NCBI GenBank assembly: GCA_001816475.1
Contig: MHCC01000027.1
Span: 11,312-75,311, forward strand
DNA length: 64,000 nt
Direction of reading: 5' to 3'
Source: Candidatus Blackburnbacteria bacterium RIFCSPLOWO2_01_FULL_40_20
GTDB lineage: Bacteria; Patescibacteriota; Microgenomatia; UBA8517; UBA10165
In this document: positions 17,861-40,205 of the stretch, in pieces
Layout: every line of letters begins with the position of its first letter
Position numbering within the stretch: the stretch's first letter is position 1
Translations under genes and position numbers: made by a program
Notes under the pieces: model-generated
Told to the model about the DNA's origin: nothing
The model's input: only the letters and a program-made list of their open reading frames with translations
The model's database searches: none

Positions 17861-18142
17861 ATGGCTAAAATCAACCCAGATGACAGTCTTCCAGCAGCCT
17901 TTGCTAAGCAGCTTTTGCAACTTGCAACAGCCGGGTTTGGATTGGTTGCAGCACTTGCTTGGAATGACGCAATTAAGAATGCTATCGAAGAATACATAAA
18001 GCCGCGCGTTGCCAACGGAACTGGCATCATCTCTCAACTAATTTACGCTCTAATTATTACTGCCCTGGCAGTATTAATTACTTATCAACTAACAAAAATC
18101 ACAAGAAGGTTTGAGAGGAAGAAGAAAAATAATAAGAATTAA
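17861..18142 (+). CDS. small membrane protein (2 TM)
   Basis: 93 aa, two TM helices, basic C-terminus KITRRFERKKKNNKN whose coding sequence is repeated at 19836-19872. Confidence 0.4.
   Translation: MAKINPDDSLPAAFAKQLLQLATAGFGLVAALAWNDAIKNAIEEYIKPRVANGTGIISQLIYALIITALAVLITYQLTKITRRFERKKKNNKN
18095..18131 (+). repeat. direct repeat copy 1 (37 bp, 2 mismatches to copy at 19836-19872)
   Basis: aaaaatcacaagaaggtttgagaggaagaagaaaaa vs aaaaataacaagaagatttgagaggaagaagaaaaa. Confidence 0.8.
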
Positions 18143-18341
18143 TCTCATTGGCAACCTCAAATTAATACTTGCGCCATAACTATCAATTAAGATATAACAT
18201 TAATGTTGCAACTTTTGTGCAGCAACTTGTTTTGTTTCTTGGCTTATATCAACTAGCGACAGTCTCCAAGAAAATCACAACAATTGAAAAGGTAGTAGTC
18301 GAAGTAAAGTGTGCTGGCTAGCAAAGGACAAGGAGGGCATT

Positions 18342-18446
18342 GTGGGAATAGACGCAAGACCAGGGTCTAACGGCAGTCGTCAGGGACCAGGCAGCGGTGG
18401 AGGTCATCCGGGAAATCCCGGCAAACCAGCAGGCGGCGGAAAGTAG
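18342..18446 (+). CDS. candidate sORF, 34-aa Gly/Pro-rich peptide MGIDARPGSNGSRQGPGSGGGHPGNPGKPAGGGK
   Basis: GTG start 6 nt after AAGGAGG, followed by strong intrinsic terminator; lies in GC-rich island; below the 60-aa cutoff of the ORF track. Confidence 0.3.
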   Translation: MGIDARPGSNGSRQGPGSGGGHPGNPGKPAGGGK

Positions 18447-18483
18447 CAAGCTCAGCACGCAGCAACGACTACTTCTTTTATTG

Positions 18484-18535
18484 GCAGGTGATCTAACTCA
18501 AATTAGACAAGGTCACCTGCTTTTCATTTCTCTTC
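18484..18535. terminator. intrinsic terminator hairpin (bidirectional position)
   Basis: GCAGGTGATC-17nt loop-GGTCACCTGC then TTTTCATTTCTCTTC; sits between the convergent sORF and M16 peptidase gene. Confidence 0.55.
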
Positions 18536-19846
18536 AAGTGATTTTCCCAATTTTTCTGCATCAGTAGGCCCAATCGCAGCAATGTAGAAATTATTCTTTT
18601 GAAAATACTTTGAAGCAACTTCAAATACTTCTTGCGACGATATTTTCTTATACATATTTTCTTGTTCATTCGGAGAAATTGACTTGCCTCGCATTGATTC
18701 TTGAAATCCATACCACCGGGCAAAATCTGTTACCGTTTCCATGTTCGAAATCAAACTGCCTGTAATGTGTCCTTTAGCTAACTTCATGTCACTATCGCTT
18801 AACTTTTTATTTGATAACTTTTCAAATTCCTCCTTTACCAACGATGTAATTTTGTATTGGTTTTCTTTTGATGCTGACGCACTAAAAAAAAGATATCCTG
18901 TCTCGTCCAAGTTGTCCTGCCACATATTCCAATTGTATATTAGTCCACCTTCGTCTCTTAATCTTTGTGGCAAACGCGCTCCAAAATATCCACCCAAACA
19001 ATCTGTAATAAAATCCAGAACGTGCCTGTCTTGGTGGGCATACGGTATTGTTTTTACACCAAACATTATAGCCGTTTGATCTGAATCGATAAAATTGACT
19101 TTTACCCTCTCGCCTGAGTTTGATACCTCATTTTGACTATGAAGAAAAGATTTTCTGTTATAGATTGTCGAATATTCATCAAACAATTTCACTGAACTCT
19201 CAAGGTCAACATCCCCCGCTACAATAAAGACTGTTGAGTCGGCCAAAAAATGATCACTAATGAAATTCCCAACATCGCGAGTCGATATATTTTTAACATC
19301 TTTTTCAACACCAGTACAAGGATGAGACAAGCATGTTCCTTTAAAAAACAGAGGGTTCCATGCAAAATCCCATATCGCTGTTTCAGGATTTTCCCGACGC
19401 TTCAAGATTTCTTCTTTTACAACACCCTTCTCCTGTTCCAAACCTTCGTTGTTTATAATTGGATTTACGAGTGTTTCAAAAAGTATTTCAATTCCTTTTT
19501 TAAGTTGTAGTTTTGGTAAATGAATCATGTGCCTTTGGTATTCAATCCAAGTAAAGGCATCGTGCCACCCTCCATGTTGATTTATGGATTGTGAAAGTAA
19601 TGCTGAAGAAGGGTAGTTTTTTGTTCCGTTAAAAAGCATGTGCTCCGTAAAGTGAGCAAGTCCTGGCCGATTTGATGGATCATGCCGAAACCCGGCCTTT
19701 ATGTAGGCTGAAATTGTAACAGGAAATGCACCAGGAATTTTTATAACACCCAAAGTTGATCCATTGTTTAGTCTGGTCTTTTGATAAAAAGTTTGCTTGC
19801 GCATGATGTAATTATATGACAAAAGGCTTGGCAATAAAAATAACAA
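18524..19846 (-). CDS. M16 family zinc metallopeptidase (insulinase/pitrilysin-like)
   Basis: Inverted zincin motif HFTEH (GLAHFTEHMLFNG); more likely start at ATG 19804 (MRKQTFYQ), track start is TTG. Confidence 0.8.
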   Translation of the reverse strand: MLFLLPSLLSYNYIMRKQTFYQKTRLNNGSTLGVIKIPGAFPVTISAYIKAGFRHDPSNRPGLAHFTEHMLFNGTKNYPSSALLSQSINQHGGWHDAFTWIEYQRHMIHLPKLQLKKGIEILFETLVNPIINNEGLEQEKGVVKEEILKRRENPETAIWDFAWNPLFFKGTCLSHPCTGVEKDVKNISTRDVGNFISDHFLADSTVFIVAGDVDLESSVKLFDEYSTIYNRKSFLHSQNEVSNSGERVKVNFIDSDQTAIMFGVKTIPYAHQDRHVLDFITDCLGGYFGARLPQRLRDEGGLIYNWNMWQDNLDETGYLFFSASASKENQYKITSLVKEEFEKLSNKKLSDSDMKLAKGHITGSLISNMETVTDFARWYGFQESMRGKSISPNEQENMYKKISSQEVFEVASKYFQKNNFYIAAIGPTDAEKLGKSLEEK

Positions 19847-19872: not shown

Positions 19873-19879
19873 TAAACTA

Positions 19880-20320
19880 TTAAATTTGCACTTTTTCCTG
19901 AACAAGTTTGTGCGTTTCTTTTTTAAAATACTCCTTTACATCGTCCCAATTTACCTCGATTAGCATATTGGGCATTTGACTTTCTTTTTCAGCATCATCA
20001 AAATAATCCAGAGAGCGCATAGTCGAATAAAGGTGATCTTCTAAAACAGAGTACTTTTTTTGATAAAACATTAACATTTCCTCAAGCGTGTATTTTTGAG
20101 AAAGAAAATAAACATCTACAAAATCTCTCTTCGTCCCACGTTGTTCAATTGCGTGAATTTTCATAGCAGCAATGTCAGCAAAGCTCGCCAATTGAATGCC
20201 CTCGAACAGGATGATCGGTTCAATTAGTGGAAACTTATAATGGAATATTGAAAACTTTGTTTGATTTATTTTTCCCCACACAGTCCACTTGGCAGTTCCT
20301 TCTTGAGTAAATTCAGGCAT
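19880..20320 (-). CDS. nucleotidyltransferase AbiEii/AbiGii-toxin-like protein, probably N-terminally truncated
   Basis: MKIHAIEQRGTKRDFVDVYFL resembles K..A...R...RD.YD.y.l motif of AbiEii family; only 146 aa. Confidence 0.4.
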   Translation of the reverse strand: MPEFTQEGTAKWTVWGKINQTKFSIFHYKFPLIEPIILFEGIQLASFADIAAMKIHAIEQRGTKRDFVDVYFLSQKYTLEEMLMFYQKKYSVLEDHLYSTMRSLDYFDDAEKESQMPNMLIEVNWDDVKEYFKKETHKLVQEKVQI

Positions 20321-20466
20321 GGAAGTAAGTTTTGCGGAAAGCTCAACTTAGTTAAACTCACGCTGAGTAAAAAAGTCAAGGTCAATAGAAATCCTGTGTC
20401 TAATCTGTATGGCTAAGGCTGTTCCTCCGGCAAGATATCCCTCTTTAATTTCAGTAATGTTTGAAA

Positions 20467-20781
20467 CTAACTGGATAGCCCGAAGTGTATCGGGGAGTAA
20501 GGTTTTTGTAAACATGGCACCTGTTTTTTATCCAAGCCAAGTATGTCGGCCCAAAAATTCCCTGTTAGCCTATCAAGATCGCGCGTACCTAAAACTACTT
20601 TTTTTATTACTTCGATCCCGTATGTTTTTATCAGCCAACGTATATCGCTAAAATTGCCCCTATCTAAAATCCGTTTTGTAATAAAAAAAATGTCCTTTTG
20701 AACCTCTAATTTTTCAAATTCTATGTCCCAAAAATATGGCCTAAAATTTTCGGGAACTCTCGTTTCTCCGCCTTGTTTCAT
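20467..20781 (-). CDS. hypothetical small protein (possible partner or N-terminal remnant of nucleotidyltransferase gene)
   Basis: 104 aa ORF immediately upstream of AbiEii-like fragment. Confidence 0.25.
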   Translation of the reverse strand: MKQGGETRVPENFRPYFWDIEFEKLEVQKDIFFITKRILDRGNFSDIRWLIKTYGIEVIKKVVLGTRDLDRLTGNFWADILGLDKKQVPCLQKPYSPIHFGLSS

Positions 20782-20813
20782 ACCTACATTATCGCATATT
20801 TTGGATCAGAAAT

Positions 20814-21224
20814 CTAGGAATAATCTGCCAAATTTTTAACAAAAGGTAGGTTAACTAAAGATACAAATTTTGCGTCAGCCGTATATAATTTACACTTCTT
20901 TTCCTTTGCCAAAACAACGTATGACGCGCCGTAAACTGAAACTTCGTACTTTTTAGAAATTTCTACTGCTTTATTTGCTCGTTTGAAGTTAATAGGCTCA
21001 AAACTAATCCCAATTTTTTGCAGGTTTTTTAAGTTTAACTTAATCTTTTCAAAAGGAAGTGCACTTTTTGTCGCCCAAGCATTCGTTAATTTGTAAAGAA
21101 GTAAGTCTGGAACACAAATCGTTTCCTTTTCGCTTAAATGCGATTCAAGAATTTTCAGCGCAGTTGAGGACTCAGCTTCGTCACTATACCATTTGAATAT
21201 CACTGAAGTATCAACAACTATCAT
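20814..21224 (-). CDS. vapC: PIN-domain ribonuclease, VapC-like toxin
   Basis: MIVVDTSVIFKWY N-terminus with conserved acidic residue, 136 aa, overlaps upstream antitoxin gene by 4 nt. Confidence 0.8.
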   Translation of the reverse strand: MIVVDTSVIFKWYSDEAESSTALKILESHLSEKETICVPDLLLYKLTNAWATKSALPFEKIKLNLKNLQKIGISFEPINFKRANKAVEISKKYEVSVYGASYVVLAKEKKCKLYTADAKFVSLVNLPFVKNLADYS

Positions 21225-21475
21225 TTTGCTTCTTTGTATCTCATCTCTCGCAACGTCCCAACCACATCGAAATCTTTTAAATACTTGGCATTTTGTTGGG
21301 CTAATTTTTTAGTCTGAGCTATTAGTTTCTTTTTTGAAGCAAGGGATTTTCCTCCTTTTCGAGCTAATTTTTCCCGAATTATAGCAGACAGGCTCTTTCG
21401 CTTTTTAGCAGCCTCTTCCTTGAGTCTTAAATAATCTTCCTCAGAAATTCGAATGTTAGTGGTTACATAATCCAT
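21221..21475 (-). CDS. vapB: RHH/CopG-like antitoxin (VapB-like)
   Basis: 84 aa, NIRISEEDYLRLKEEAAKKRKSLSAIIREKL ribbon-helix-helix signature; ATGA overlap with vapC. Confidence 0.65.
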   Translation of the reverse strand: MDYVTTNIRISEEDYLRLKEEAAKKRKSLSAIIREKLARKGGKSLASKKKLIAQTKKLAQQNAKYLKDFDVVGTLREMRYKEAK

Positions 21476-21580: not shown

Positions 21581-21918
21581 GTAAAAGTCAAGATCAATTA
21601 GCAAACTTGATCATATAAGTCATATTGGAAATTGACCTTAGAAATGATCCCCGAAATGCAGGAAAAGTTCTACAAAAAATACTGGACGAGTACAATAAAT
21701 TGAAATAAATTTCAACTGATTTCAACTGATTCTTGACTGATTTAGACGTTTGAATTAGAATACAAACTATAGACAGGAGGTGTTTAACTTGAAATTGGTA
21801 ATTAAAAGAAAAAAATCTCGTATTGTGATATTCTGTTCCCCTGAAGATAGATAATATTTAAATGCACTAACCGTACCGCCTCTGGTTCCACGTCGTTGGA
21901 GTAAGTGTAGTATGTATT

Positions 21919-23007
21919 ATGGGTAGTAAACAAAAATTTAAATTAAATCTAAATTGGATAGTTAAAGAAGAAAAAGACCAAATTAGCCTCAATTCACCCT
22001 ATGGAGAGAAGAAAAAATATACACCTTCAAAACATCTGTTAGAATTTTTAATAATCAAAAGTTGTATCAATCAGCCAAAAAGTTTAAAACTAATAACTCA
22101 AGATATACAAAACGTGCTCAACGTGTCGCAAAAGGAAGTGGAAAACAAGATAAGTGAATTATTAAAAGCTAAAATATTCAGCTATAATACAACATCTGGG
22201 AATACTTTCTCCACAAATGAATTAGACAGGTATAAATGGCAACTGGAATTTTTTACTTCATTTGAATCGTTAAAAAACTCTAAATATGACATACAAAATA
22301 ATTTAAAAAACAGTCACATCGCCATCATCGGCATAGGAGGCCAAGGAAGTATCATCGCTCAAATACTCGTAGCTATGGGGATAGGAAAACTAACAATAGT
22401 AGATGGTGATACCATTGAAAGAAGTAATTTGACTAGACAACTGGCATATAATGATAGCGATATTGGTAAATACAAAGTAGAAGTGCTCAAATCAAGGCTG
22501 AAACTACAAAATCCATATACCAAAATAACTCCAATGAGGCAATATGTAACCTCAAAAAAAGATTTTATGGATATTATAAATGGTAAAGATTTTGTAATTT
22601 TGTGTGCAGATAAACCTCTCGTTAAGTTAGGGAGGTGGTTAAACAAAGTAGCCCTATCTGAAAGAATACCTTATTTAGGGGTTAGTGGAAATTGGATAGG
22701 CCCTATCTGTATACCCTTTAAAACACCCTGTTTTGAATGCGTATTGTCCCACCAAATAAATAAGGACAAAGATTTTGAAAAATATCTAAAGACATTGGAA
22801 AAACTCAAAGAAATTCCTAGGCCATCTTTTGGAGTTAGACCGATTTTATCAGGAACGTTAATGGCTTTACAAGTAATTAAATATCTCACAAAGGTTATGG
22901 ACGTTGAGATTTTAGAAGGTAGATTTAGAGTCAACATAGATTTAACTACAGAGTTTGAAAAGATAAAACTAGATAACAATTGTAAGGCATGCGGAAATAC
23001 AAAATGA
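21919..23007 (+). CDS. E1-like (ThiF/MoeB/HesA) enzyme with N-terminal RRE/winged-helix-like extension (TOMM C-protein-like)
   Basis: IAIIGIGGQGSIIAQILVAMGIGKLTIVDGDTIERSNLTRQ ThiF nucleotide-binding signature starting ~aa 135; ~130-aa N-terminal extension; 19-nt overlap with YcaO gene. Confidence 0.8.
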   Translation: MGSKQKFKLNLNWIVKEEKDQISLNSPYGEKKKYTPSKHLLEFLIIKSCINQPKSLKLITQDIQNVLNVSQKEVENKISELLKAKIFSYNTTSGNTFSTNELDRYKWQLEFFTSFESLKNSKYDIQNNLKNSHIAIIGIGGQGSIIAQILVAMGIGKLTIVDGDTIERSNLTRQLAYNDSDIGKYKVEVLKSRLKLQNPYTKITPMRQYVTSKKDFMDIINGKDFVILCADKPLVKLGRWLNKVALSERIPYLGVSGNWIGPICIPFKTPCFECVLSHQINKDKDFEKYLKTLEKLKEIPRPSFGVRPILSGTLMALQVIKYLTKVMDVEILEGRFRVNIDLTTEFEKIKLDNNCKACGNTK

Positions 23008-24227
23008 AATTCTCTGCTTATCCACTAGATTATCCCCTAGGAGTTCCCAAGCTCCCTGGTTATGTGGTTAAGGCTCCTCGAATATCACAATCATCATCTG
23101 ATGCAAAAAAAATAAGCAACATTGTAGGCGCGAGTGTAGGTCTTGAAAATAATAATGCACTACAAAGAGCCTATGGCGAAGCAATTGAAAGATATTGTTT
23201 GTATCAATACAATGAAACTAATTTTCAACAACATCATACAAACAAGACAGACGTTACAAAAATATTTAGTAAATTTATTCTCTATGACGATAATCAATAT
23301 TGTGATAAAAATTTTCCCTACAGGAAACCGTGCGACACCAAGAAGTTTTTTGTTGTTCTAGGAGAAAGTTTGCTTAATGGCTCACAAAAATATTTACCTG
23401 TAGATCTGGTTTATCCCCGGCATAAGAAAGATCATCAGAGGATTGATTCAATGAATCCCAGTGGGTCTGCTTCTGGCAACACCAACCAACTAGCTATTCT
23501 AAATGGTTTGTGTGAAGTTATTGAAAGAGATTCTTTGATGTGTGCTTGGTTAACTTCTTCACATTTTTATCAGCTGCCATTGCGATTTGTCAAAGATGCA
23601 AGCGTCAATAAATTATTAAATATAATTAAAAACTCTAAACTTAATTTAGTCATCTATTTAGTGGTTAATGATATGAACATGGTTACTGTTGTTGCAGTAT
23701 TGACTTCTAAAACCGCACCTTATATGTCTTTTGGATCGGCAATGACTCTTGAGATTATCCAATCAATAAAAAAAGCGATTGAGGAGTCAATTATGATTAG
23801 AAGGTCGCAACTAATCCTGTATGAACAAGACAATAACAAGCGCCAAAACAGAAAGGAAATATTAGAGTTAAGTGATCATATTATGGTTCCTACTAATAAA
23901 ACTAACGTAGCAGAAATAAAGAGAACAATGGGTAATAAATTATTAAGCTTTAATCAATATAGAAAAATTTTGTCTAAGGCGCCAGTGAGTTTATACGATC
24001 TATTAATGCGATTAGATCAAAAATATTTTGAACCTTGGTGTGTTGATATTGCCCCTAAAGAAATTAAGGAAAGTGGGTTTTCTGTTTGTAAAATTTTAAT
24101 ACCCGGACTACATCCTTTAGAAATAAATCAGAACTATTTACATAATGATCCTAGAAGATTACAATCTTTTATAAATACGAGCGTTGCCGTGACAAGAGTA
24201 AATAAGTTTCCACATCCGTTTGGATAA
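22989..24227 (+). CDS. YcaO-domain protein (ATP-dependent peptide backbone-modifying enzyme)
   Basis: GASVGLENNNALQRAYGEAIERY and NPSGSASGNTNQLAILNGLCEVIERDSLMCAW YcaO ATP-binding motifs; C-terminus KFPHPFG (Pro-rich YcaO tail). Confidence 0.85.
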   Translation: MRKYKMKFSAYPLDYPLGVPKLPGYVVKAPRISQSSSDAKKISNIVGASVGLENNNALQRAYGEAIERYCLYQYNETNFQQHHTNKTDVTKIFSKFILYDDNQYCDKNFPYRKPCDTKKFFVVLGESLLNGSQKYLPVDLVYPRHKKDHQRIDSMNPSGSASGNTNQLAILNGLCEVIERDSLMCAWLTSSHFYQLPLRFVKDASVNKLLNIIKNSKLNLVIYLVVNDMNMVTVVAVLTSKTAPYMSFGSAMTLEIIQSIKKAIEESIMIRRSQLILYEQDNNKRQNRKEILELSDHIMVPTNKTNVAEIKRTMGNKLLSFNQYRKILSKAPVSLYDLLMRLDQKYFEPWCVDIAPKEIKESGFSVCKILIPGLHPLEINQNYLHNDPRRLQSFINTSVAVTRVNKFPHPFG

Positions 24228-24229
24228 TC

Positions 24230-25567
24230 ATGAGAATTTATAATAGTCTTACAAGAAAAACTGATATTTTTAAGCCTATAAATCCTCCTAAAGTAGGAAT
24301 GTATACATGCGGCCCAACAGTACACGACTATCAGCATATTGGTAACTTTAGAACCATGATACTGTCTGATTTTTTGTACAGAACACTTGTTGCCAATAAT
24401 TATCAAGTCAAGTCTGTAAGAAACATCACTGATATTGATGACAAGATAATAAAAAAGGCAAAAGAAAAAAACTTGCCGATAGAAATATTTACCAAAGAAT
24501 ACACTCAGGCTTTTATAGAAGATTTAGGCAAGCTTAATATTTTGCCTACGAGCATTTCCCCTAAAGCTACAAAGTACATAGAGCAAATGATTAAATATAT
24601 TGAGGAACTGGTTAAGAAGGGTTTGGCCTATGTAGAAAGGGATGGCTCCGTTTATTTTGATATTTCTAAATTCCCCTGTTACGGCAAACTATCGGACCTT
24701 AATGGCCGAACGCTCAAAACAGGTACCAGAATTTTATCTGATGAATATTCAAAAGACGATGCTCAAGATTTTGCTCTCTGGAAAGCAGCGGCTCAAGATG
24801 AGGTTGGTTGGAGCAGTCCGTGGGGAAAAGGTAGACCAGGGTGGCACATTGAGTGTTCAGTAATGAGCCAACAACACCTAGGGGATACTTTTGACATACA
24901 TGTTGGAGGAATAGACCTGCTTTTCCCTCACCATGAAAATGAGATTGCCCAGTCCGAAGGAAAAACCGGCAAACCCTTTGTAAAGTACTTTATACACGGT
25001 GAACATCTGTTGGTAAATGGCACAAAGATGAGTAAATCCTTAAACAACTTCTATACCCTAAAAGATTTAGTTGGGAAAGGATTTGACCCACTTGCTTTTA
25101 GATATTTGGTGCTAACAGCACACTACAGAGATAAGCTTAATTTTACCTGGGAATCACTTACGGCGGCCCAGAATGCACTTGAGAACTTGAGAGAAAAAAT
25201 TAGAGGATGGAAACACGCAGGAAACGGATTATGTGGATACTATCACGAGTTTATCGAAGCTGTAAATAATGATTTAAATACACCACAAGCCGTAGCGGTA
25301 ATGTGGAAGATGGTTAAGGCGAAAAAACCAGTCTCTGCCAAAGCAGCAACTTTGCTCCAAATGGATCAAATTTTAGGGTTAAATATAGAAAAATATTTAG
25401 ACAGAAAATTAAACATTCCACCCGAAATTCAAGAATTAATTAGGCAAAGGGATGTGGCTAGAAAAAATAAAAATTTCAGACTGGCGGATCAGTTTAGGAT
25501 AAAAATCCAAAAGCAAGGATATCGGGTGACAGATTTAGAAGATAAGACTCGAGTAGTAAAAAGGTGA
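24230..25567 (+). CDS. cysS: cysteine--tRNA ligase
   Basis: Class I HIGH (YQHIGN) and KMSKS motifs, CGPTVHD zinc-binding region; starts 2 nt after YcaO stop. Confidence 0.9.
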
Positions 25568-25590: not shown

Positions 25591-25665
25591 GTTAAGGTTT
25601 GGCCACCAACTGATCCTTGCACTTTGATTTTTAGTGGTATAATTATTCACAAAGCATTTAGCTTC
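25591..25665. repeat. intergenic repeat element copy A (~75 bp)
   Basis: Shares gttaaggttt..agtggtataattattcacaaagcattt with copy C (31874-31943) and ccaccaactgat(c/t)cttgcact with copy B (27837-27927). Confidence 0.7.
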
Positions 25666-25715
25666 AAATAACGACAAAAGCATAAGCAGTCGTAACCGTA
25701 TCAACATTTTGCCCG

Positions 25716-27350: not shown

Positions 27351-27606
27351 TTATCCCTTCTTCCAACATCTGTTTTATGAAAACCTTAACTGCAGAAATT
27401 TTTTGGCCAAGTTCTTTTGCAAGTTCAATAATTTGTATCCCAGGGTGAGAATTAATTTTAAAGAGGATCCAGTAGCCGCTAGAATTAACTTTAATATATC
27501 TTTTACTTTTCCAACTAAAAACGATGGTTGAATAACCGTTCCTTTTATCAATGGCGGGGTTAAAAATGACGGATAAAGGATTAACAATAAAACCTGTTTT
27601 CTCCAT
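27331..27606 (-). CDS. PqqD-like small protein (RiPP recognition element-like), paralog 1
   Basis: 91 aa; TIVFSWKSKRYIKVNSSGYWILFKINSHPGIQIIELAKELGQ matches PqqD/RRE pattern; translationally coupled to downstream AsnB-like gene. Confidence 0.6.
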   Translation of the reverse strand: MEKTGFIVNPLSVIFNPAIDKRNGYSTIVFSWKSKRYIKVNSSGYWILFKINSHPGIQIIELAKELGQKISAVKVFIKQMLEEGIIAEYET

Positions 27607-31873: not shown

Positions 31874-31943
31874 GTTAAGGTTTTTACTCAAGTGGTATAA
31901 TTATTCACAAAGCATTTTGCTTCGCAAAACTTGACAAATAACT
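31874..31943. repeat. intergenic repeat element copy C with TTGACA box, upstream of 31984 gene
   Basis: gttaaggttt..agtggtataattattcacaaagcattttgcttcgcaaaacttgacaaataact. Confidence 0.7.
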
Positions 31944-31983: not shown

Positions 31984-33735
31984 ATGTCAAGAAAAGAGTA
32001 CCTGCCATACGGCAGAATATTCAATAGGCTTGCTCAAGGAAGCGAGGCTCGCAACGCTCAAAGGGACCATTTGAGCCTAGAGCCTCAACAAAAGGTGCCT
32101 GAACCGGCGCCCGGTGAGATGTCCCCCGAAACCGCCCCCGCCTTTACCCCCTCTGCCCCAACCACCACTCTTGAGTCACCCGCCCCTTTCACCCTTACTA
32201 CCCTTACCCAAGAAATCACAACAACCACAGCTTCCGAAAAACCGGCTCAGGCGCAAATAATAGAAAACATCGCCGCTCCAGAAACAAAAACTCCAGGAGT
32301 ATTAGGATTTTATAAGAAGCTTAAAACCCCAATTCACATTGCTGCTGTAGTAATTACTATGACAGCCGGACAACTATTAGGTCGCAGCCCAAGCGAAGGC
32401 AAAGCAAAGGAAGGAATAAAACCAGGACAAGGCATAACAGAAATCCAAGACGCCGGCATGCCCTCAAAACAAGCTATTGAAGGAACAAGAAAAGAGCTGG
32501 CAATAAACCCTGAGATTAAAACATATACGGACTACAAAGTAATTGATTTGAAAAGCAACGGCAATGAGCTGGTGACGATTTCAGAGGTTGGGGGAAAAAG
32601 GTATGTGAGCACTAACTCTAAAGATAGTATAGGTAACGATATTATAAAGAGTGTTGGAACCCCACCTTTTTATGCACTTTCAGCCGCAAGATCTGGAAAT
32701 AATATTGTTGTTGTGGGAGACAAAGAAGCCCGATCCAACCAAGGCAGAGCATGGTTCACAACTGACGCGGGCAAGAACTGGAGATTAATTGAAAGTAGTG
32801 TTGGAACAATGTGGGCAGTGCAGCTTACCCCGGACAATAAATATGCCTATATTTCAGCTTCAAGCGTGAATCTTGAAAATGGAGTGCTTGTTTCGCGTTT
32901 AGACCTTGCAAATTCAACAGTAACAAACTTTACGGTATCGGGTACTCCTTCGGGAGAATCTATACGCATTCTGACCCCATTAGTGGCGGTAGAGGGTTCA
33001 TATAAAAGTTATGCTGCCATACCTCTCAACACGGGGTATTACGAGATCACCCATTTAGCAGATAGAATAGATGCTGTCAGGTTTAATATTGATGAAGGTT
33101 ACGCCAGAGGAGAAATTACTAATTTTACAAACAGCCAAGGAGAGCAAGAAGTTTGGCTGATTAATAACGATGTTGGAGGTTATCCTCCAAATAATTCAAG
33201 CCGGAGAACTGGAACCATTTATCGCAACATCGATAACGTTTTAAGTAGCGTTATACAACCAAAAACTTCCTTCCATCCAGAAGCTGGAACAAATAGCGGC
33301 ATAGTAGTATCGACAGCTGCAGCTGAAGTTCACCTAGATCTGGGCTTTATGGCTGTTGGAGCCGAAATCGGCGATGGCGGGTTAAGTACTAAAATCGAAA
33401 CATTCCCGATATCTGATCCTGTTAACTTAGAAAAAAGAGAACTAGTCCCTCAAGACGGAGATTGGCCTCAGATTTTATCAAACAAAGAACGAGTGGAGGT
33501 CAGATCCTTGAAAGTTTTGAGCGTAGAAGGGAAAAAGGTTTTAGTTGCGAACATTCAAAAATGGGAATATGTTTACGACTCTTCCACAAACACTGAAAAG
33601 CTTGTTTTCCAAACGGGGGGGCTACTAGAAAGGGATATTACCCAGGGAGTTTCATCAGAAAAACAATGGAGGAAAGCTTCTTCAATTGAAGAAATAATAA
33701 AACATCAAGTCTATATACCAAATGTGGTTAGGTAA
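31984..33735 (+). CDS. membrane-anchored protein with Pro/Thr-rich linker and BNR/Asp-box beta-propeller-like domain
   Basis: PT-rich region aa 35-85, TM helix IHIAAVVITMTAG, Asp-box-like TTDAGKNW. Confidence 0.45.
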   Translation: MSRKEYLPYGRIFNRLAQGSEARNAQRDHLSLEPQQKVPEPAPGEMSPETAPAFTPSAPTTTLESPAPFTLTTLTQEITTTTASEKPAQAQIIENIAAPETKTPGVLGFYKKLKTPIHIAAVVITMTAGQLLGRSPSEGKAKEGIKPGQGITEIQDAGMPSKQAIEGTRKELAINPEIKTYTDYKVIDLKSNGNELVTISEVGGKRYVSTNSKDSIGNDIIKSVGTPPFYALSAARSGNNIVVVGDKEARSNQGRAWFTTDAGKNWRLIESSVGTMWAVQLTPDNKYAYISASSVNLENGVLVSRLDLANSTVTNFTVSGTPSGESIRILTPLVAVEGSYKSYAAIPLNTGYYEITHLADRIDAVRFNIDEGYARGEITNFTNSQGEQEVWLINNDVGGYPPNNSSRRTGTIYRNIDNVLSSVIQPKTSFHPEAGTNSGIVVSTAAAEVHLDLGFMAVGAEIGDGGLSTKIETFPISDPVNLEKRELVPQDGDWPQILSNKERVEVRSLKVLSVEGKKVLVANIQKWEYVYDSSTNTEKLVFQTGGLLERDITQGVSSEKQWRKASSIEEIIKHQVYIPNVVR

Positions 33736-33743
33736 TAATTTAC

Positions 33744-35498
33744 TTAAGGAGTAATTAATTTACAACCATCCGTATCTGGGTTTGAGGTTTGACAATCAGG
33801 AATAAGGACCTTTTGAACGGGAGTTGAGCCGTCTTCCAAATAAGCAGCAGTGTACATGTTTTTACTACTAAAAGCGTCACTAAACCGAATTTCCCAACTG
33901 ACCTTATTTCCTTCCACACCCCTCCCCCAAACAACATACATCTCCGTATCAGAATCATTTTTTACCGGCCTTCCATCACTCGGAATCGAACTCCAAAGTG
34001 TTTTGTTCCATACATAAAAAGTTCCGTCTGAGTCGTATCTAAGTAAAATTCCATTTTGGGGGTTTGCTACCCTACTTGAAGCATCCGTAACAAACGTGTT
34101 TGCGTCTGTCAGTTTTGCACCCAGCGTTGAGTTGCTGTTATACATTGCCACATAATATTTATTAACAGAACTACTTCCTGGAGTGACTGTCAGCGAAACT
34201 TTCATCGGATTAACCCAACTTGAGCCGTTGGGAGCAATCTTGCCGGAATGAGTCGTAACTCCACTAAAGGTAGTTTGACTAGCTGTGGCGTTTGCAATTT
34301 TGAGAGTGCTGATTTTTGGGGCCGAATTGCCAACGGTCAATGAAGCATAACTCCCATCTCCGCAAGGCCAAAAGCCGCTATAAGACCAAGACGTAACGTA
34401 GGGGTTGCCAGCACAATTAAGATTATTTTCTCCATTATGGACTGTAGTACCAAAATAATAAGTTCCTGTAGATTTTGGGGTCCATTCTGCTCTCCTAATA
34501 TTTCCACCCATGACATAAAAAGTGTCAATCGTTCCTCCTCCTATCCGGCACCAAGGAGACCCTGCGTTCGCTGGAACTCCTCCATTTTCAGAGCATTCGG
34601 AAGGAAGGCTGGCGGATCCACCATTGTCCTTTGTAACGAAAATGTATGCGTTAGACACATAGCCGGTTTGTCCAGCCATCCCTAATAAGCTACCAATATA
34701 TTCGGTATACACCAGAGTATCTACTAAATCGCCTACTAAAGCAGCGCAACTACTTGCGCTTTTACATGTCACATATCCCGTGGGGGGATAATTGGCATTA
34801 ACAACTGCTCTGTCCAACTCTGTATCTCCCGCAAAAAGAACAAAGAGTTTTCCAGGAAAGTTTATCCAATTTATATCATCTGATCCACTAGGATTACCGT
34901 TTACCGGACTTCCATTTGTTCTACTTACCGTTGTACTCGACGAGCTTAAAGTTGTGTTTGTTCCATCGCTGCCCCAATTATATAAATTACCAGAGTGTGA
35001 AGTTAAATCGAATGCATACAATCCCACGTTGCTCGCATTTGAAGTGGTGAAGCTTACATTTGGCAGGGGAATAGTAACACCAGTCGAACTACGACAGAGG
35101 TTGTTGTTATGGTTTAGAACACAAGGGTTGTTTGACGTTGTGATTGATCCTGTCGGGTCGCTGGGGGCGGGGGCAGACTCTCCTCCTCCTCCACCAGATG
35201 GGACTCCTGGAGTGTAACAATATCCGCATTCCCCTGAGCAAACAGCACCCGTCACACAACCAACACCTTGAATCCCGCTGCCCGAACAATTACCACTTTG
35301 ATTACAAACGTAAGTCGTTACTGCAGGATTACAGGTTCTGCTATCTCCGCTGCCGTCACTACACCATTGAGTTCCGTCGCACCCTTCAGTGCTACAACTA
35401 CAATCACCCCAAGACTCACAAGCATTTGCAATGCTTGTTTTTGGTAAAAATAAAAAATAGAACGTTGCAGCAACTGAAAGGAAGATTAACTTAAACAT
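33744..35498 (-). CDS. secreted Cys-rich protein with long Asn/Ser/Thr/Gly-rich domain
   Basis: Signal peptide MFKLIFLSVAATFYFLFLPKTSIANA; ~90-aa block with >20 Cys (CESWGDCSCSTEGCDG..), 584 aa. Confidence 0.5.
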   Translation of the reverse strand: MFKLIFLSVAATFYFLFLPKTSIANACESWGDCSCSTEGCDGTQWCSDGSGDSRTCNPAVTTYVCNQSGNCSGSGIQGVGCVTGAVCSGECGYCYTPGVPSGGGGGESAPAPSDPTGSITTSNNPCVLNHNNNLCRSSTGVTIPLPNVSFTTSNASNVGLYAFDLTSHSGNLYNWGSDGTNTTLSSSSTTVSRTNGSPVNGNPSGSDDINWINFPGKLFVLFAGDTELDRAVVNANYPPTGYVTCKSASSCAALVGDLVDTLVYTEYIGSLLGMAGQTGYVSNAYIFVTKDNGGSASLPSECSENGGVPANAGSPWCRIGGGTIDTFYVMGGNIRRAEWTPKSTGTYYFGTTVHNGENNLNCAGNPYVTSWSYSGFWPCGDGSYASLTVGNSAPKISTLKIANATASQTTFSGVTTHSGKIAPNGSSWVNPMKVSLTVTPGSSSVNKYYVAMYNSNSTLGAKLTDANTFVTDASSRVANPQNGILLRYDSDGTFYVWNKTLWSSIPSDGRPVKNDSDTEMYVVWGRGVEGNKVSWEIRFSDAFSSKNMYTAAYLEDGSTPVQKVLIPDCQTSNPDTDGCKLITP

Positions 35499-36059
35499 TT
35501 ATTTTTCTACGATTGCAAGCCTTGTAATTTTTCCTTCTTCCGGCTTACTCATATCAAAAGAATAGTCCATCAATATTTGATCGCCCGCTTTTATTTCTGA
35601 AGCTGTAAATTCAGACTGTTTGCCCTGCGAATCTACTTTCACAACTAGATCTTTCGAAGATTTAGGTAGAAAAAATTTCCTTCCCAAATCTTGTCCAACC
35701 GGACTATACATCTCCAATTCAAATCCTTCATTATTGTTTGTGGGCGAAATACTCTTTATATTGCCTTGAAGTTGATATGAAACCATCACTCTTTTAATTG
35801 TCGATTTCTCAATTGCAAAAAGTGGACTACTAGGGGAAAGGAAAGGAGCAATAGAAGGAGAGGGGGAAGTAACAGGCTGTTGGGATACTTTGTTGTCTTT
35901 TTTAAGAGCTATCGATTGCAACAAATCTTTTTTGTAAGCCACTCCAATTGCGGCGAGTATAAGAAGAAAGACAACTCCGACTATTATGTAAATCAATTTT
36001 GGACCGAGAGGTGTGGCAACTTTTTTTTCAGGAACTTGTTGGGGTAATTGGGATTCCAT
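35499..36059 (-). CDS. membrane-anchored hypothetical protein
   Basis: One N-terminal TM helix, 186 aa; abuts Cys-rich protein gene. Confidence 0.35.
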   Translation of the reverse strand: MESQLPQQVPEKKVATPLGPKLIYIIVGVVFLLILAAIGVAYKKDLLQSIALKKDNKVSQQPVTSPSPSIAPFLSPSSPLFAIEKSTIKRVMVSYQLQGNIKSISPTNNNEGFELEMYSPVGQDLGRKFFLPKSSKDLVVKVDSQGKQSEFTASEIKAGDQILMDYSFDMSKPEEGKITRLAIVEK

Positions 36060-36630: not shown

Positions 36631-38247
36631 TCAGTCAGAAATCTTAATATTATTTTGCTGAATGAAATACTCCAATTGTAGGGTAGCAAGTAAAAAACTA
36701 AGAGCATCTCCTTCAAGATATTTATGGGTGTCCCCCTTTTTCATATCATCGATAATCTCGCTAGCTTTTATCCATCCTTTTTGCGCCAAAATGGATTTCT
36801 TGAGAACTGAGATTATAAAATCTTGTTTCTTATCCAAAAAAAGTTGGACATGACCTACCGGGCCTTCTTTTGGTCTAAACTGGCTAGGAGCAAAAATCTC
36901 TTCGCGTGTTTTCCAAATTTCTTGTTTTGATAAAGCCTTAGAACCTTTACGGGGAATCATACGCGCTAGTTGCACCAACCGGGGATCGATAAAGGGAGTC
37001 ATTGGCCAAATCCCAGTTTCCCAGTAAACGGGAAAAAGACCGGAATTTACCAATATGGCCGATGGTGAAATAATTGAAGGGAATATTTTTTTTCTTTGAA
37101 AACGCTCTTTGTCTAGTAACGCTTGTATACCTTTGTCTGTAAAAATCTTATCGAGACCAAATTTTAATTTTTTAACGGTCCAAAAATATTCTTCCTGGAC
37201 AGGGAAAGGGGAAAGTACATCCATCGCATGGGCTTTATATATCTCGTCTCCTCCCTCGCCGGTAAATTCGATTTTTATTCCTTCTTTAGCTGGATAGGAG
37301 TAAAAGTGGAATAGTAACCCTTCAGCAATCTGATTAGGGATTTTTGCTGCCCGCTTTAAATCGTTCTTGCTCGCAAAAGGATAGAAAGGATCTTCGTTGA
37401 TATATTTAATAATCAAGCCGTATTTTTGCGCTAATTCTTCCACTATTTTGGGGTGTGTATCACCAAGTGTATATTTAGAGATACCACAGTAGCACTTAAA
37501 ACTTTTTTTTGTCTGTTTTTTGAGTAAATATACGACAAGAGAGCTGTCGAAGCCGGATGATATGTCCCCCGCGAAAGGAAGGTGCTCTATCGAAGAAAGC
37601 CGCTCGGCTATAGTTCGCTTCAATGATAAAAGAAAGTCATTCGAAAATTTTTCAGCGGATGCGTAAGGTTGCTGTCGTTGCTCGAGAAATTTGTCCAAAT
37701 CCACTAATGGTGTCAAGGAGTACGAGAAGTCGTTCTTAATCTTCAAAAGAGTTGCTGGCGGGACCTGATTAATCTCAGCAACAACTGTTTGATCACTTAC
37801 TAGTATTTGTCGGGAAATGAGTCCAAAAGCAGCTCCAATGTTAAGAGTAAGAGAGGACAATTTATCCTTCACTGTTTCAAAATCTGTTGACAGAACGAAT
37901 TTATCGTCCTCAACTGAGAAAAAACAAGGGAATTTCCCCGTTTGATCGGTGAGAAGAAAAATTTCGTTTTTTGCGAAATCACAATATATAATTAAAAAAT
38001 CTCCAACCAAATTTCCCAAGAGATCCCAGCCGCCTTCTTTACAAAGCTCAACGATTTCTTCGAACGTTACTTTCTTGTTGTAACAAACGAAATAACCAGC
38101 ACAAAAGAAACCTTTACCTGTCAAATGGAAGCTAGGCGGAAATGTTCTTTCGGGTAATACAAATCCTTTCGCTACTATCTCCGACAACAGTCCATCTTTT
38201 AATAATTTTTTAGGAATTTCTAAATAAAGGTGGGAGAGTTTCTTCAT
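36631..38247 (-). CDS. asparagine synthetase-like adenylating enzyme (lasso-cyclase-like), paralog 2
   Basis: 538 aa, DISSGFDSSLVVYLLK PP-loop-like, no N-terminal Cys; paralog of 25716-27350; ATGA overlap with PqqD-like gene. Confidence 0.7.
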   Translation of the reverse strand: MKKLSHLYLEIPKKLLKDGLLSEIVAKGFVLPERTFPPSFHLTGKGFFCAGYFVCYNKKVTFEEIVELCKEGGWDLLGNLVGDFLIIYCDFAKNEIFLLTDQTGKFPCFFSVEDDKFVLSTDFETVKDKLSSLTLNIGAAFGLISRQILVSDQTVVAEINQVPPATLLKIKNDFSYSLTPLVDLDKFLEQRQQPYASAEKFSNDFLLSLKRTIAERLSSIEHLPFAGDISSGFDSSLVVYLLKKQTKKSFKCYCGISKYTLGDTHPKIVEELAQKYGLIIKYINEDPFYPFASKNDLKRAAKIPNQIAEGLLFHFYSYPAKEGIKIEFTGEGGDEIYKAHAMDVLSPFPVQEEYFWTVKKLKFGLDKIFTDKGIQALLDKERFQRKKIFPSIISPSAILVNSGLFPVYWETGIWPMTPFIDPRLVQLARMIPRKGSKALSKQEIWKTREEIFAPSQFRPKEGPVGHVQLFLDKKQDFIISVLKKSILAQKGWIKASEIIDDMKKGDTHKYLEGDALSFLLATLQLEYFIQQNNIKISD

Positions 38248-38507
38248 TTTTCAATAATAATATTCTCTTTACTCATGGTCCCTAAAAACTTCCCAATTTT
38301 GGACACATCTACTTTAAGAAGCTGGTAAATCTCTTCTATGCCTATTCCAGGATTTTCATCAATTGTCCTCAGAATATTATACCCAAACTTATTAACTTTG
38401 ATAATTTCTTCCGTCACAGAATTAAAAACAATTGTTTTATAATTATTTTTCTGGTCAAGTTGAGGACAAAATAGAACCGCAAGAGAATTTATAAAATACT
38501 TCATCAA
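38244..38507 (-). CDS. PqqD-like small protein (RRE-like), paralog 2
   Basis: 87 aa, TIVFNSVTEEIIKVNKFGYNILRTIDENPGIGIEEIYQLL parallels paralog 1. Confidence 0.6.
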   Translation of the reverse strand: MMKYFINSLAVLFCPQLDQKNNYKTIVFNSVTEEIIKVNKFGYNILRTIDENPGIGIEEIYQLLKVDVSKIGKFLGTMSKENIIIEK

Positions 38508-38543
38508 AAAAACAGCAGGAAACTCTATTAACTTCTAAGGTGC

Positions 38544-40205
38544 TTAATCCAATGGGACATACCTAGTCCTGTCTATGTTCATTCTTTTACCAACATTCAA
38601 TTCTCTTATCTTACCTAACATTTCTACGGTTGGTTCAACATCCGCAATCAATTCTCTCTCAATTTCCTTTGGACTCGCCTTACCTACTAACCCTAAATAC
38701 CAGTTATTAGCTGTAAAATATTTTTTTGCTACTTTCGCGACGGAGTCGATTGTAATTTCTTTATATATTTTTGCTATTTCTTGTGGAGTGTAACTTTTAC
38801 CCGAGAGAAACTCTTGTTCACCGTACCATCCATTATAATCCGCAGTTGTTTCCATATTTAAAAGAAGTTCACCTATTGTTTGACTTTGCGCTATTTCAAA
38901 TTCTTCCTTCGAAAATTTACCTTTAGCAACTCTCTTAAATGAATAACATATCTGTTTAATTGTCTCGTTTAAAAATTTTCTACCTGTGGACGTTTTGAAA
39001 TAAATATATCCTTCCTCCTGGAGTAAATCCTGATCTAATACCCAATCATAGATAAACCCCTTCTCTCTTAATTCATTAACCAATATGCCAGAAAAGGATC
39101 CTCCAAGTAATCGACTAATTAAACGTAAAGCGTGTGTGTCGTTGTGGTCTTTTTTTATAGTTTTGAAACCAAACATTAGATAAGTATTATCTGTATTATT
39201 TGGTAATATTTTCAAAGAACCGCCCTTATGTGGCGCAATTTTTTGTGCGGCATTTTTCCCTTTATTCTTTATATCACCAAAGTATTTTTCTACAATGTTT
39301 AAAGCGTAATTTGTATCGAAGTTTCCGGCTATACAAAGAACTCCTTTGTTGAAAGATATTTCATCTATAAATTTTTGTACATCAGTTATTGATATATCAT
39401 TTAGATCATTAACATTTCCTGTGTATGGTCTTGCGAGTGAACTCCCCCTCCAAAACGCTTCATTCCAAGCATAATCCCAAACTGCTATGTTTGGCTCAAA
39501 TCTGTCCTTGTTAATTTCCTCTATCACAGATTGTTTCTCTTTTTGTAATTCAACGTTTTTTAATAGCGGGTAACGTATAGTTTGTTGTAAAACGTCAATT
39601 CCATGTATGTCCAAGAGTTTATTAAACTCTTCGTCGACAAAACCACCAATCGCACAACATTTTAATCTCATTGCTTCGGAAATTAAATACAAATTTTGAG
39701 CTACATGTCCACATTCCATCAATATAAACCTATAACCTCGCTCTTCATATTTTATTCTGGTTCTATCCAGAACGGCGGATAATATTATCACACACGACGA
39801 GTCCCCAACAAAAGATTGTCCGGTATTGTCAACTAGAAAATTTTTGTTAGATCCTTTTCTTAATTGTTCAATTGAGTTGTTTTTAACATTAAAATGATAT
39901 ACTCCTTTTTTTAATGTCTTAACATTATTTACCTTTCTTGGCTTTCCCGACTCAATCAACATTAAAAACCAATGAACAGTCACCATAGTAATTTTTTTAT
40001 TCGCATCATTTTTAACTTCGTAAGTAAACTCACCAAGATATTCAACCGGTTTTGCCCTAAATCCGGTTTCTTCCAATACTTCCCTTATTGCAGTTTGCTG
40101 AAGACTTTCTCCTGGTTCTTGATGTCCTTTTGGTAAAGATGTGTCCTTAACTGCTACGCGATCAATGGCTACAACACTAGCAATGCCATTTTCAACAGTC
40201 ACCAC
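38544..40205 (-). CDS. fusion protein: NUDIX hydrolase + nitroreductase-fold (SagB-type-like) fragment + M16-peptidase C-terminal (non-catalytic) domain
   Basis: Perfect Nudix box GHQEPGESLQQTAIREVLEETGF; nitroreductase C-terminal signature YRFILMECGHVAQNLYLISEAMRLKCCAIGGFVDEEF; last ~330 aa align to the C-terminal part of the M16 protein at 18524-19846 without HxxEH. Confidence 0.65.
   Translation of the reverse strand: MVTVENGIASVVAIDRVAVKDTSLPKGHQEPGESLQQTAIREVLEETGFRAKPVEYLGEFTYEVKNDANKKITMVTVHWFLMLIESGKPRKVNNVKTLKKGVYHFNVKNNSIEQLRKGSNKNFLVDNTGQSFVGDSSCVIILSAVLDRTRIKYEERGYRFILMECGHVAQNLYLISEAMRLKCCAIGGFVDEEFNKLLDIHGIDVLQQTIRYPLLKNVELQKEKQSVIEEINKDRFEPNIAVWDYAWNEAFWRGSSLARPYTGNVNDLNDISITDVQKFIDEISFNKGVLCIAGNFDTNYALNIVEKYFGDIKNKGKNAAQKIAPHKGGSLKILPNNTDNTYLMFGFKTIKKDHNDTHALRLISRLLGGSFSGILVNELREKGFIYDWVLDQDLLQEEGYIYFKTSTGRKFLNETIKQICYSFKRVAKGKFSKEEFEIAQSQTIGELLLNMETTADYNGWYGEQEFLSGKSYTPQEIAKIYKEITIDSVAKVAKKYFTANNWYLGLVGKASPKEIERELIADVEPTVEMLGKIRELNVGKRMNIDRTRYVPLD

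Follow-up and report, generated by a model that had tools for sequence, protein, structure and literature searches.

The window analysed here is a stretch of 64,000 nt from contig MHCC01000027.1 of Candidatus Blackburnbacteria bacterium RIFCSPLOWO2_01_FULL_40_20, a Microgenomates member of the candidate phyla radiation (CPR). It carries two copies of a three-gene cassette, comprising a small open reading frame (sORF) for a putative precursor peptide, a gene for a small PqqD-like winged-helix protein that is predicted to be a recognition element (RRE) for peptides that ribosomes make and that are modified after translation (RiPPs), and a gene for a homolog of the asparagine synthetase AsnB. The gene map was obtained from Pfam and NCBIfam scans of the window proteins, which covered part of the window's ORFs. 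We think that the finding here is a minimal precursor-RRE-AsnB-like cassette, related to the lasso peptide machinery, protease-less and limited to a few CPR lineages, with a signature that points to an internal Lys nucleophile. The two copies consist of the following genes:

27617-27769, minus strand: precursor peptide 1, 50 aa from TTG 27769 (MVENKFEKMSELKLEVEEEPTAEILGGMIELGNVKSVLIDITRYPKATPS)
27331-27606, minus strand: RRE-1, a putative RRE; small PqqD-like winged-helix protein of 91 aa (Pfam HTH_24, 1.5e-6)
25716-27341, minus strand: AsnB-like 1, an AsnB-family ligase/cyclase homolog of 541 aa from ATG 27341 (Pfam Asn_synthase)
38544-38669, minus strand: precursor peptide 2, the last 41 codons of a chimeric ORF (KEIERELIADVEPTVEMLGKIRELNVGKRMNIDRTRYVPLD)
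38244-38507, minus strand: RRE-2, a putative discrete PqqD-like RRE of 86-87 aa (AlphaFold2 (AF2) model and Foldseek)
36631-38247, minus strand: AsnB-like 2, an AsnB-family ligase/cyclase homolog of 538 aa

In cassette 1, the precursor gene ends 10 nt before the start of RRE-1; GGAGGTGA lies 5 nt ahead of its TTG, and a promoter-like TATAAT is found at 27802-27797. The RRE-1 stop is overlapped by 11 nt by AsnB-like 1, for which the 541-aa start is the one chosen by gene callers in the strain assemblies, and the overlap between RRE-2 and AsnB-like 2 is 4 nt. Precursor 1 was missed by the gene callers in eight strain assemblies. An earlier first-pass annotation of this DNA, made from the letters alone, did not describe the precursors in its account; a 50-aa peptide that it mentioned is probably the first of them. 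Contigs of Candidatus Blackburnbacteria metagenome-assembled genomes, which derive from the Rifle aquifer and from related groundwater metagenomes, also carry the exact AsnB-like 2 protein.

Among 5.8 billion protein clusters, no more than 41 contain homologs of the AsnB-like protein (31-61% identity), and the named ones all belong to Microgenomates. Related loci were collected from one genome per species, which gave seven loci, and from JGI metagenomes, which gave 43. When the window proteins were compared with all fetched loci by tblastn, a small winged-helix gene was found immediately upstream of the AsnB-like gene almost everywhere. In nearly every locus, an sORF of ~42-60 aa lies directly upstream of the winged-helix gene, 13-60 nt before its start. 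The unit conserved in relatives is thus made up of the sORF, an RRE of 83-100 aa, and an AsnB-family enzyme of ~540 aa, in that order. Both copies in the window, and about 45 loci from Blackburnbacteria, Woesebacteria, Amesbacteria, and unnamed metagenome contigs (all named ones being Microgenomates), have its genes in this order, tightly packed or overlapping. Some genomes carry the cassette twice on one contig (e.g., locus L011), as in the window. In locus L033, a second RRE/AsnB-like pair with 24% identity (2994-5161) lies directly downstream of the first cassette, and its own sORF ends ...LGVKRGGRESGVHKWGR, which again has the K-x4-E spacing described below.

No other gene was found to accompany the cassette consistently. 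In the 10-kb flanks of the related loci, tblastn with the window proteins never recovered ThiF or YcaO, while an M16 peptidase was found near only two loci, 2 and 8 kb off, and a cysteinyl-tRNA synthetase (CysRS) near one. Among the 149 ORFs that lie within 5 kb on either side of 16 non-redundant loci, a Pfam census detected no family in more than four loci, and none of transglutaminase-like protease, ABC transporter, YcaO, ThiF, and M16 was recurrent in it. SagB is likewise no recurrent neighbour of the cassette. Nudix genes were considered as recurrent neighbours (4/16 loci by Pfam) and were rejected after phmmer and motif scans showed no consistent adjacent Nudix. A lasso B2 leader peptidase was found neither among the annotated genes of the region, nor within 5 kb of the 16 loci, nor in the other contexts examined. 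In other species, toxin-antitoxin genes frequently lie near the cassette, which suggests that the cassette resides in variable genome regions.

With moderate confidence, we read the region as carrying a RiPP-type cassette of three genes that is self-contained and present in two paralogous copies. Everything outside the cassette, namely the operon of ThiF, YcaO, and CysRS, the M16 peptidase, the toxin-antitoxin genes, the remnant of IS30, and the pieces of Nudix, SagB, and M16, is read as neighbours or relics. The first-pass annotation had assembled four kinds of peptide-maturation module in this region into one toolkit. Its observations were largely right, but this unifying interpretation is not supported, as only the sORF, RRE, and AsnB-like genes co-occur in the about 45 related loci; in relatives, the YcaO/ThiF, fusion, and M16 modules are scattered with no co-occurrence, unlike the RRE/AsnB module. 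It had also recognised no described RiPP class in the combination. This holds for the RRE/AsnB pairs, which match no described class that we found in the literature, but the combination itself is not one system. We found no published description of the cassette family, either as a B2-less system of an RRE and an enzyme resembling asparagine synthetase (AS-like) or among RiPPs in Microgenomates.

The small winged-helix proteins are, judging from a structural model, likely to be discrete B1-type RREs. Their sequences are less distinctive. The best single-sequence Pfam matches of the family are HTH_24 and MarR, and its profile matched only MarR/Lrp regulators among PDB sequences, while 20 of the 26 members in the family alignment match PqqD (PF05402) weakly (E<=1, best 1.9e-4) and one member has been named "PqqD family protein" by NCBI. 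These regulator matches would fit a situation in which no peptide is modified, where a winged-helix regulator controls an AsnB-like metabolic enzyme and the sORF encodes a leader or attenuator peptide or is spurious, an explanation that we regard as highly improbable. The PDB profile search returned only MarR/Lrp proteins, and it took a comparison of structures to recognise the relationship to RREs. The AF2 model of RRE-2 (22 homologs, pLDDT 94.5) has as its top 12 Foldseek matches exclusively RRE domains of RiPP enzymes, and its best full-length structural matches are the lasso B1 proteins TbiB1 and TfuB1 (TM 0.67-0.69).

AsnB-like 1 contains the PP-loop SGFDSS and no Cys2, and its matches to the NCBIfam models asn_synth_AEB (2.7e-13) and lasso cyclase (1.3e-12) are both far below cutoff. 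The AF2 model of AsnB-like 2 (pLDDT 92.9) displays the full two-domain AsnB fold, with TsnB9 as the first of its top Foldseek matches, which also include the E. coli and human asparagine synthetases, carbapenam synthetase, and beta-lactam synthetase. Across the enzyme alignment (24 members), neither the PP-loop SSGFDSS nor the GGDE motif varies, and the N-terminal glutaminase Cys (Cys2) is found in 0/24 members. Only 16/24 have a Cys that aligns with the AsnB nucleophile, and this Cys is internal, with ~48 residues before it. The first-pass annotation had described two paralogous pairs of a PqqD-like RRE and an AsnB-like protein as RiPP-type and devoid of the glutaminase Cys, and the Pfam matches, the structural comparisons, and these counts bear it out.

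The enzymes fail both the N-terminal Cys and the cutoff of the asparagine synthase model TIGR01536 (50-55 bits, cutoff 267), in contrast to the glutamine-dependent asparagine synthetase AsnB. Their fold, PP-loop, and lack of Cys2 fit a lasso cyclase; against the curated lasso-cyclase model NF033535, however, they score 34-47 bits (cutoff 525), no better than against the asparagine synthase models. The family is a new divergent branch of the superfamily that is probably unable to use glutamine canonically, as is likewise the case for lactam-forming members. Beta-lactam and carbapenam synthetases share with the cassette enzyme the AsnB fold and have PP-loop adenylation, intramolecular attack by an amine to form intramolecular amides, and no use of glutamine. 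Unlike the cassette enzyme, they act on small molecules, with no RRE and no peptide precursor.

An alignment of 27 non-identical sORF products comprises a variable N-terminus, a conserved (E)P-x-[AVI]-E-x-[LI]-G-x3-E block, and then an invariant Lys, which can be summarised as the family pattern EPxxExLG...K-x4-5-[DE]. The Lys is the only invariant column in the 27 precursors and is never Arg, even though Arg is the commonest residue of the precursor tails (39 R vs 3 K). An Asp or Glu is found at K+5 or K+6 in 25/27 precursors (shuffle mean 5.0, maximum 14 in 20,000 shuffles), and the two precursors without it end at K+4. The acid is followed by a tail of 5-10 residues that is rich in Arg, Pro, and aromatics, with subfamily tails such as KYGPLSEPSFRRPG, KRMNIDRxxYxPxD, KRWFxxxPRxPDxG, and KRVSYExRRYARx. 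The C-terminal residue varies among the 27 precursors (S, D, G, A, I, T, Q, L, F, H, K, Y), and the residue before the invariant Lys is not conserved. Three further precursors fit the Lys/acid pattern, one of them from the L033 pair that is only 24% identical.

Lasso peptides have rings of 7-9 residues, closed between residue 1 and an Asp or Glu at position 7-9, and a Thr at position -2 of the leader. The cassette resembles lasso biosynthesis (A, B1, B2, C; TbiB1/TfuB1) in that a discrete PqqD-type RRE gene lies just before, and overlaps, an AsnB-superfamily gene without the glutaminase nucleophile, with a small precursor gene directly upstream encoding a leader with a P-x-hydrophobic element. 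The precursors also share an acid, either Asp or Glu, that is set at a constant short spacing from a conserved amine residue, and a short bulky tail. The cassette differs by having no B2 gene in the loci examined, no transporter, and a confinement to CPR Microgenomates. Its conserved amine belongs to an internal invariant Lys rather than to a new N-terminus, and there is no conserved Thr at -2. Discrete RREs recognise the lasso leader motif [Y/W]xxPx[LVIFA] (PMC13381572), and the P-x-[AVI] of the cassette leaders resembles its Px[L/V/I/F/A] part, with no aromatic residue at P-3.

These likenesses could also be explained by a lasso-like pathway in which a leader protease acts in trans. A housekeeping enzyme or an M16 peptidase would cut at or next to the Lys, and the AsnB-like enzyme would link the Asp/Glu to the alpha-amine so exposed. 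Lasso B1 proteins are the nearest discrete relatives of the RRE in structure, the enzyme is in the same superfamily as lasso cyclases, and an M16 peptidase is present in the window and near two related loci. For another RRE/AS-like pathway, it has also been proposed that housekeeping peptidases take off the leader (bioRxiv 10.64898/2026.09.23.753898). We nevertheless hold this explanation to be unlikely, as no protease family recurs in the 16 neighbourhoods and neither a conserved residue before the Lys nor a Thr at -2 is present. A cut after the Lys would leave only 5-6 residues for the ring, and a cut before it 6-7, versus 7-9 in lasso peptides. In addition, the Lys is never Arg, though a protease that recognises charge would tolerate Arg.

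A second alternative would fit the top structural match of the enzyme, the hydroxyamidotransferase TsnB9. The AsnB-like enzyme could be non-cyclising, and amidate or derivatise a carboxylate (an Asp/Glu side chain or the C-terminus) with ammonia or another amine, like TsrC, ScdTA, PesC, and FzmA, which are likewise AsnB-family enzymes that act on ribosomal peptides. The characterised non-lasso AS-like RiPP enzymes all act on C-terminal carboxylates, and FzmA, of fosfazinomycin biosynthesis, uses an RRE and a YxxP leader (bioRxiv 10.64898/2026.03.11.711119, 10.64898/2026.09.23.753898). FzmA thus shares RRE/leader recognition with the cassette, and general peptidases have been proposed to cleave off its leader. 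All four enzymes, however, use a functional glutaminase domain and modify a C-terminal carboxylate, whereas the cassette enzymes have no Cys nucleophile at their N-terminus and the precursors have variable C-termini with a conserved Lys and spaced acid. Amidation would leave the invariant Lys without a role, and we consider it quite improbable.

The simplest explanation is a Lys-to-Asp/Glu isopeptide, because the cassette combines a lasso-B1-type RRE, an adenylating enzyme without an ammonia site, a Lys that is never Arg, a spaced Asp/Glu, and no protease. The RRE would bind the P-x-[AVI] leader block and present the precursor to the AsnB-like enzyme, which would activate the side chain of the Asp/Glu as an adenylate. 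Attack on this adenylate by the epsilon-amine of the Lys would then form a side-chain-to-side-chain isopeptide macrolactam, with the leader staying attached. Since the nucleophile would be internal, leader removal would be unnecessary, and we infer that this is why no B2 protease is found with the cassette. By our own count, K1-D6 to K1-E7 rings would contain 23-27 atoms, compared with 22-26 in lasso rings of 7-8 residues, and because of this match in ring size, threading of the bulky tail is conceivable. The proposed bond is of the same type as in graspetides/microviridins, which contain leader-guided Lys-Asp/Glu side-chain isopeptides; these are made by ATP-grasp enzymes via an acyl-phosphate, as opposed to the AsnB-type enzyme and acyl-adenylate envisaged here.

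We advance tentatively, and with somewhat more doubt than belief, that the cassette represents a new RiPP class native to CPR bacteria, in which a B1-type RRE and an AsnB-family cyclase would form a lasso-sized ring between Lys and Asp/Glu (or the C-terminus in the two shortest precursors), with the leader retained and the tail perhaps threaded. Several points weigh against the cassette reading and the mechanism proposed for it. An acid at K-4 to K-6 is present in 26/27 precursors and is nearly as conserved as the downstream one, which makes the partner carboxylate ambiguous. The leader is without the Tyr/Trp of the lasso motif. Homology does not specifically indicate cyclase chemistry, because the scores are equally poor for AsnB and lasso-cyclase models. 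A protease could be encoded elsewhere in the genome, as the flanks examined extend to at most 10 kb. No exporter was found among the annotated genes of the region, an absence that the first-pass annotation had correctly reported together with that of a B2 protease, and a role as a secreted natural product would be hypothetical. Cassette 2 may be non-functional in the window strain. Finally, the analysis establishes gene content, synteny, folds, motif conservation, and the deletion allele described below, while the Lys-Asp/Glu chemistry, the ring, and any threading are proposals.

To our knowledge, almost nothing is known of natural products of peptide type in CPR/Patescibacteria, whose genomes are tiny and contain few biosynthetic clusters that can be recognised. 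Standard lasso-mining rules require a B2 protease, and the cassette would escape them. If the proposal is true, the cassette would be a minimal and readily testable macrocyclisation system of three genes, protease-free and related to the lasso machinery. It would extend AsnB-family RiPP chemistry to side-chain-to-side-chain lactams, and would mean that lasso-type RRE/cyclase pairs are able to work without leader removal.

The other genes mapped in and around the region are as follows:

14746-16482, minus strand: ATP-dependent DNA ligase (Pfam/NCBIfam)
16685-17800, minus strand: Fic (Pfam/NCBIfam)
17861-18142, plus strand: DUF5654 (Pfam/NCBIfam)
18524-19846, minus strand: intact M16 peptidase with HFTEH (Pfam M16 and M16_C, both above cutoff)
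19880-21475, minus strand: toxin-antitoxin genes (AbiEii fragment, DUF6922, PIN gene, and a small gene upstream of PIN)
21919-23007, plus strand: ThiF/E1-like adenylyltransferase (Pfam ThiF 148 bits, 3.1e-43)
22989-24227, plus strand: YcaO, putatively of azoline type and orphan, D-like as in thiazole/oxazole-modified microcin (TOMM) clusters (Pfam YcaO 126.8 bits, 1.6e-36)
24230-25567, plus strand: CysRS (TIGR00435 492 bits, cutoff 340)
27952-28302, plus strand: RNHCP protein (Pfam 3.4e-30)
28724-29101 and 29558-29929, plus strand: two paralogous small proteins, no function assigned
31023-31862, plus strand: truncated IS30-family transposase remnant
31984-36059: three secreted or membrane proteins without a Pfam match
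38670-40205, minus strand: body of the chimeric ORF, with Nudix (aa 1 to ~91), SagB (aa 92-204), and M16 (aa ~201-512) fragments
40283-41356, minus strand: RecF

The genes from Fic through to the IS30 remnant are arranged identically in 8/8 strain contigs shown for cassette 1.

The 553-aa ORF at 38544-40205, which ends in precursor 2, has NUDIX, SagB/nitroreductase, and M16_C matches (Pfam/NCBIfam). The first-pass annotation had described it as a Nudix-SagB-M16C fusion, and one ORF does hold all three matches; it is, however, a mosaic of truncated pieces and not a designed enzyme. Residues 9-94 correspond to residues 32-117 of a 158-aa Nudix protein (60% identity), truncated at both ends. Residues 92-204 align, at up to 55% identity, with residues roughly 130-245 of SagB proteins that are ~255 aa long, of which the N-terminal half is gone, and this fragment is 52.8% identical to the SagB encoded beside a YcaO relative. 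Residues 201-520 correspond to residues roughly 100-420 of M16 proteins of ~425 aa, with the N-terminus gone and no HxxEH. The best M16 match (P0068, 44% identity) retains HFTEH, and the fragment is 35% identical to the intact M16 peptidase at 18524-19846. The three segments abut exactly, and a HMMER search of 1.84 billion representatives recovered no protein that covers more than one kind of segment. A real multidomain Nudix-SagB-M16C enzyme was rejected on three grounds: the architecture is unique, the matches in two stretches are tandem nitroreductases, and each piece is truncated.

Precursor 2 is 59% identical to a free-standing sORF in locus L036. The unfused state is preserved in strain locus L002, where the M16-like ORF ends ...KEIEETVNLSL* and is followed by an intergenic stretch and a separate ATG that starts a 42-aa precursor. 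This intergenic stretch contains an AGGGGG ribosome-binding site and a promoter-like TTGTTA-18-TAAAAT with TG, the latter no more than expected by chance. In the window (38655-38669; L002 9441-9579) and in 7/10 strain loci, a 137-nt deletion between AAGGAAATTGA repeats has removed the stop, promoter-like site, ribosome-binding site, and ATG, and fuses precursor 2 in frame. Precursor 2 can now be made only as the C-terminal tail of the chimeric ORF in the window strain. Another scaffolded assembly has a gap exactly at the deletion site. Two loci in which the fusion gene appeared shorter or missing were discarded as variants, as that in L009 is due to a run of N and the gap in L003 was taken as the same; L002 carries the genuine long allele. 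The chimeric ORF is a species-specific mosaic of truncated genes, and its last junction is a recent and still polymorphic deletion. The deletion represents a precursor gene caught in the act of fusing to an upstream ORF, and the ORF calls for caution before multi-domain "fusions" of reduced genomes are taken for designed enzymes.

The ThiF ORF overlaps the YcaO ORF by 19 nt and CysRS follows the YcaO stop after a 2-nt gap, in what is apparently a single operon with the same arrangement in 8/8 strain loci shown. CysRS was taken as a housekeeping gene. The first-pass annotation had read an E1-like protein with an N-terminal RRE-like domain and the YcaO protein as the C/D pair of an azoline-forming cyclodehydratase. 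The overlapping ThiF and YcaO genes are indeed present, but the N-terminal extension of the ThiF-like protein (~120 aa; 124 aa scanned) matched nothing in Pfam, and hhalign gave no match between it and the RRE profile of the cassette. The ThiF-like protein contains GxGxxG and two CxxC motifs, and scores 29.9 bits against the SagC-family model TIGR03603 (cutoff 187.65). With these motifs intact and MoeB/ThiF-like scores, it resembles active MoeB/ThiF adenylyltransferases more than the docking proteins of linear azol(in)e-containing peptide (LAP) clusters (see PMC11256085).

The YcaO protein is well above the Pfam cutoff and, at 174.8 bits, below the cutoff of the SagD-type model TIGR03604 (219.25). 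Its nearest relatives are only 24-29% identical, and its C-terminal FPHPFG is common to relatives from YcaO-SagB clusters. These relatives were found in two contexts (three contigs), with SagB directly after YcaO; one adds a C-like ORF and an ABC transporter, and one a Cys-rich sORF. A YcaO relative in locus L066 (6590-9078) is part of a textbook TOMM cluster, in which a 69-aa precursor ending ...CTTCGCGGNCECAGCSGGGGCGSCNYQ is followed by YcaO, SagB, and GNAT genes. As in TOMM/LAP clusters (C/D/B), the YcaO of the window has an FPHPF C-terminus and a match, if one below cutoff, to the SagD-type profile, and is translationally coupled to an E1-like protein. It differs in that the E1 is MoeB/ThiF-like and CysRS follows YcaO. 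No credible Cys/Ser/Thr-rich precursor was found upstream of ThiF or across the 64-kb window, and no intact SagB-type dehydrogenase in the window, where only the C-terminal half occurs, within the chimeric ORF 15 kb away. We read the ThiF-YcaO pair as a separate, probably orphan azoline-type system, which is possibly decaying.

The YcaO/ThiF proteins, the Nudix-SagB-M16C protein, the M16 peptidase, and the RRE/AsnB pairs could alternatively constitute one novel hybrid RiPP pathway. All these parts lie within 22 kb in an arrangement that is fixed across the strain assemblies of the species, ThiF-YcaO is convergent with cassette 1, and the SagB fragment is related to the SagBs of YcaO clusters. 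We give this explanation very little credence, however, as none of the extra partners accompanies the cassette in other species and no Cys/Ser/Thr-rich precursor is available to such a pathway. The pieces of the fusion, moreover, are without the M16 HxxEH segment and the SagB N-terminal half, in an architecture that is unique among the 1.84 billion representatives, and toxin-antitoxin genes, the IS remnant, and surface-protein genes lie between the modules.

Upstream of ThiF, a 27-codon ORF (21625-21708, plus strand; MEIDLRNDPRNAGKVLQKILDEYNKLK) is similar to the C-terminal end of the 123-aa protein encoded at 29558-29929 (...DIDLRHNPESVGEVLQTILDEYKRIK), and looks like a gene fragment left by rearrangement. 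The 584-aa protein encoded at 33744-35498 (minus strand) has a signal peptide and, after it, a segment with very many Cys, Ser, and Gly residues (CESWGDCSCSTEGCDGTQWCSDGSGD...), with no Pfam match. Its likeness to a TOMM core is superficial, and it is probably a secreted, disulfide-rich surface protein.

The interleaving of IS30 copies and a ~90-bp repeat family, which the first-pass annotation had noticed, was confirmed. The IS30 remnant shares 73-86% nucleotide identity with an intact copy at 60934-61938 (HTH_38 and rve); it is without the HTH, and its rve matches are faint. The repeat, of ~70-90 nt, occurs in three copies (25603-25672, plus strand; 27837-27926; 31891-31943) with a mean column identity of 74% in their alignment. 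Copies 1 and 2 are direct and bracket cassette 1, while copy 3 lies just past the IS30 remnant. The repeat could be a scar left by recombination or mobility, or a regulatory element that its sites have in common. The RNHCP zinc-ribbon gene (27952-28302, plus strand) is divergent to cassette 1, and their common intergenic region holds repeat copy 2.

The M16 peptidase at 18524-19846 is the standalone enzyme with HFTEH that had been described in the first pass. The Gly-rich sORF placed beside it there (18309-18446, GTG start) is inside the 380-nt gap (18143-18523) between the convergent DUF5654 and M16 genes, where no gene was called in eight strain assemblies. On the other side of the peptidase, the AbiEii gene (19880-20320, minus strand) is a 146-aa fragment in the window and is further split into ORFs of 92 aa and 46 aa in L072, L074, and L076 (~12.4-12.9 kb), and the toxin-antitoxin locus is therefore still decaying.

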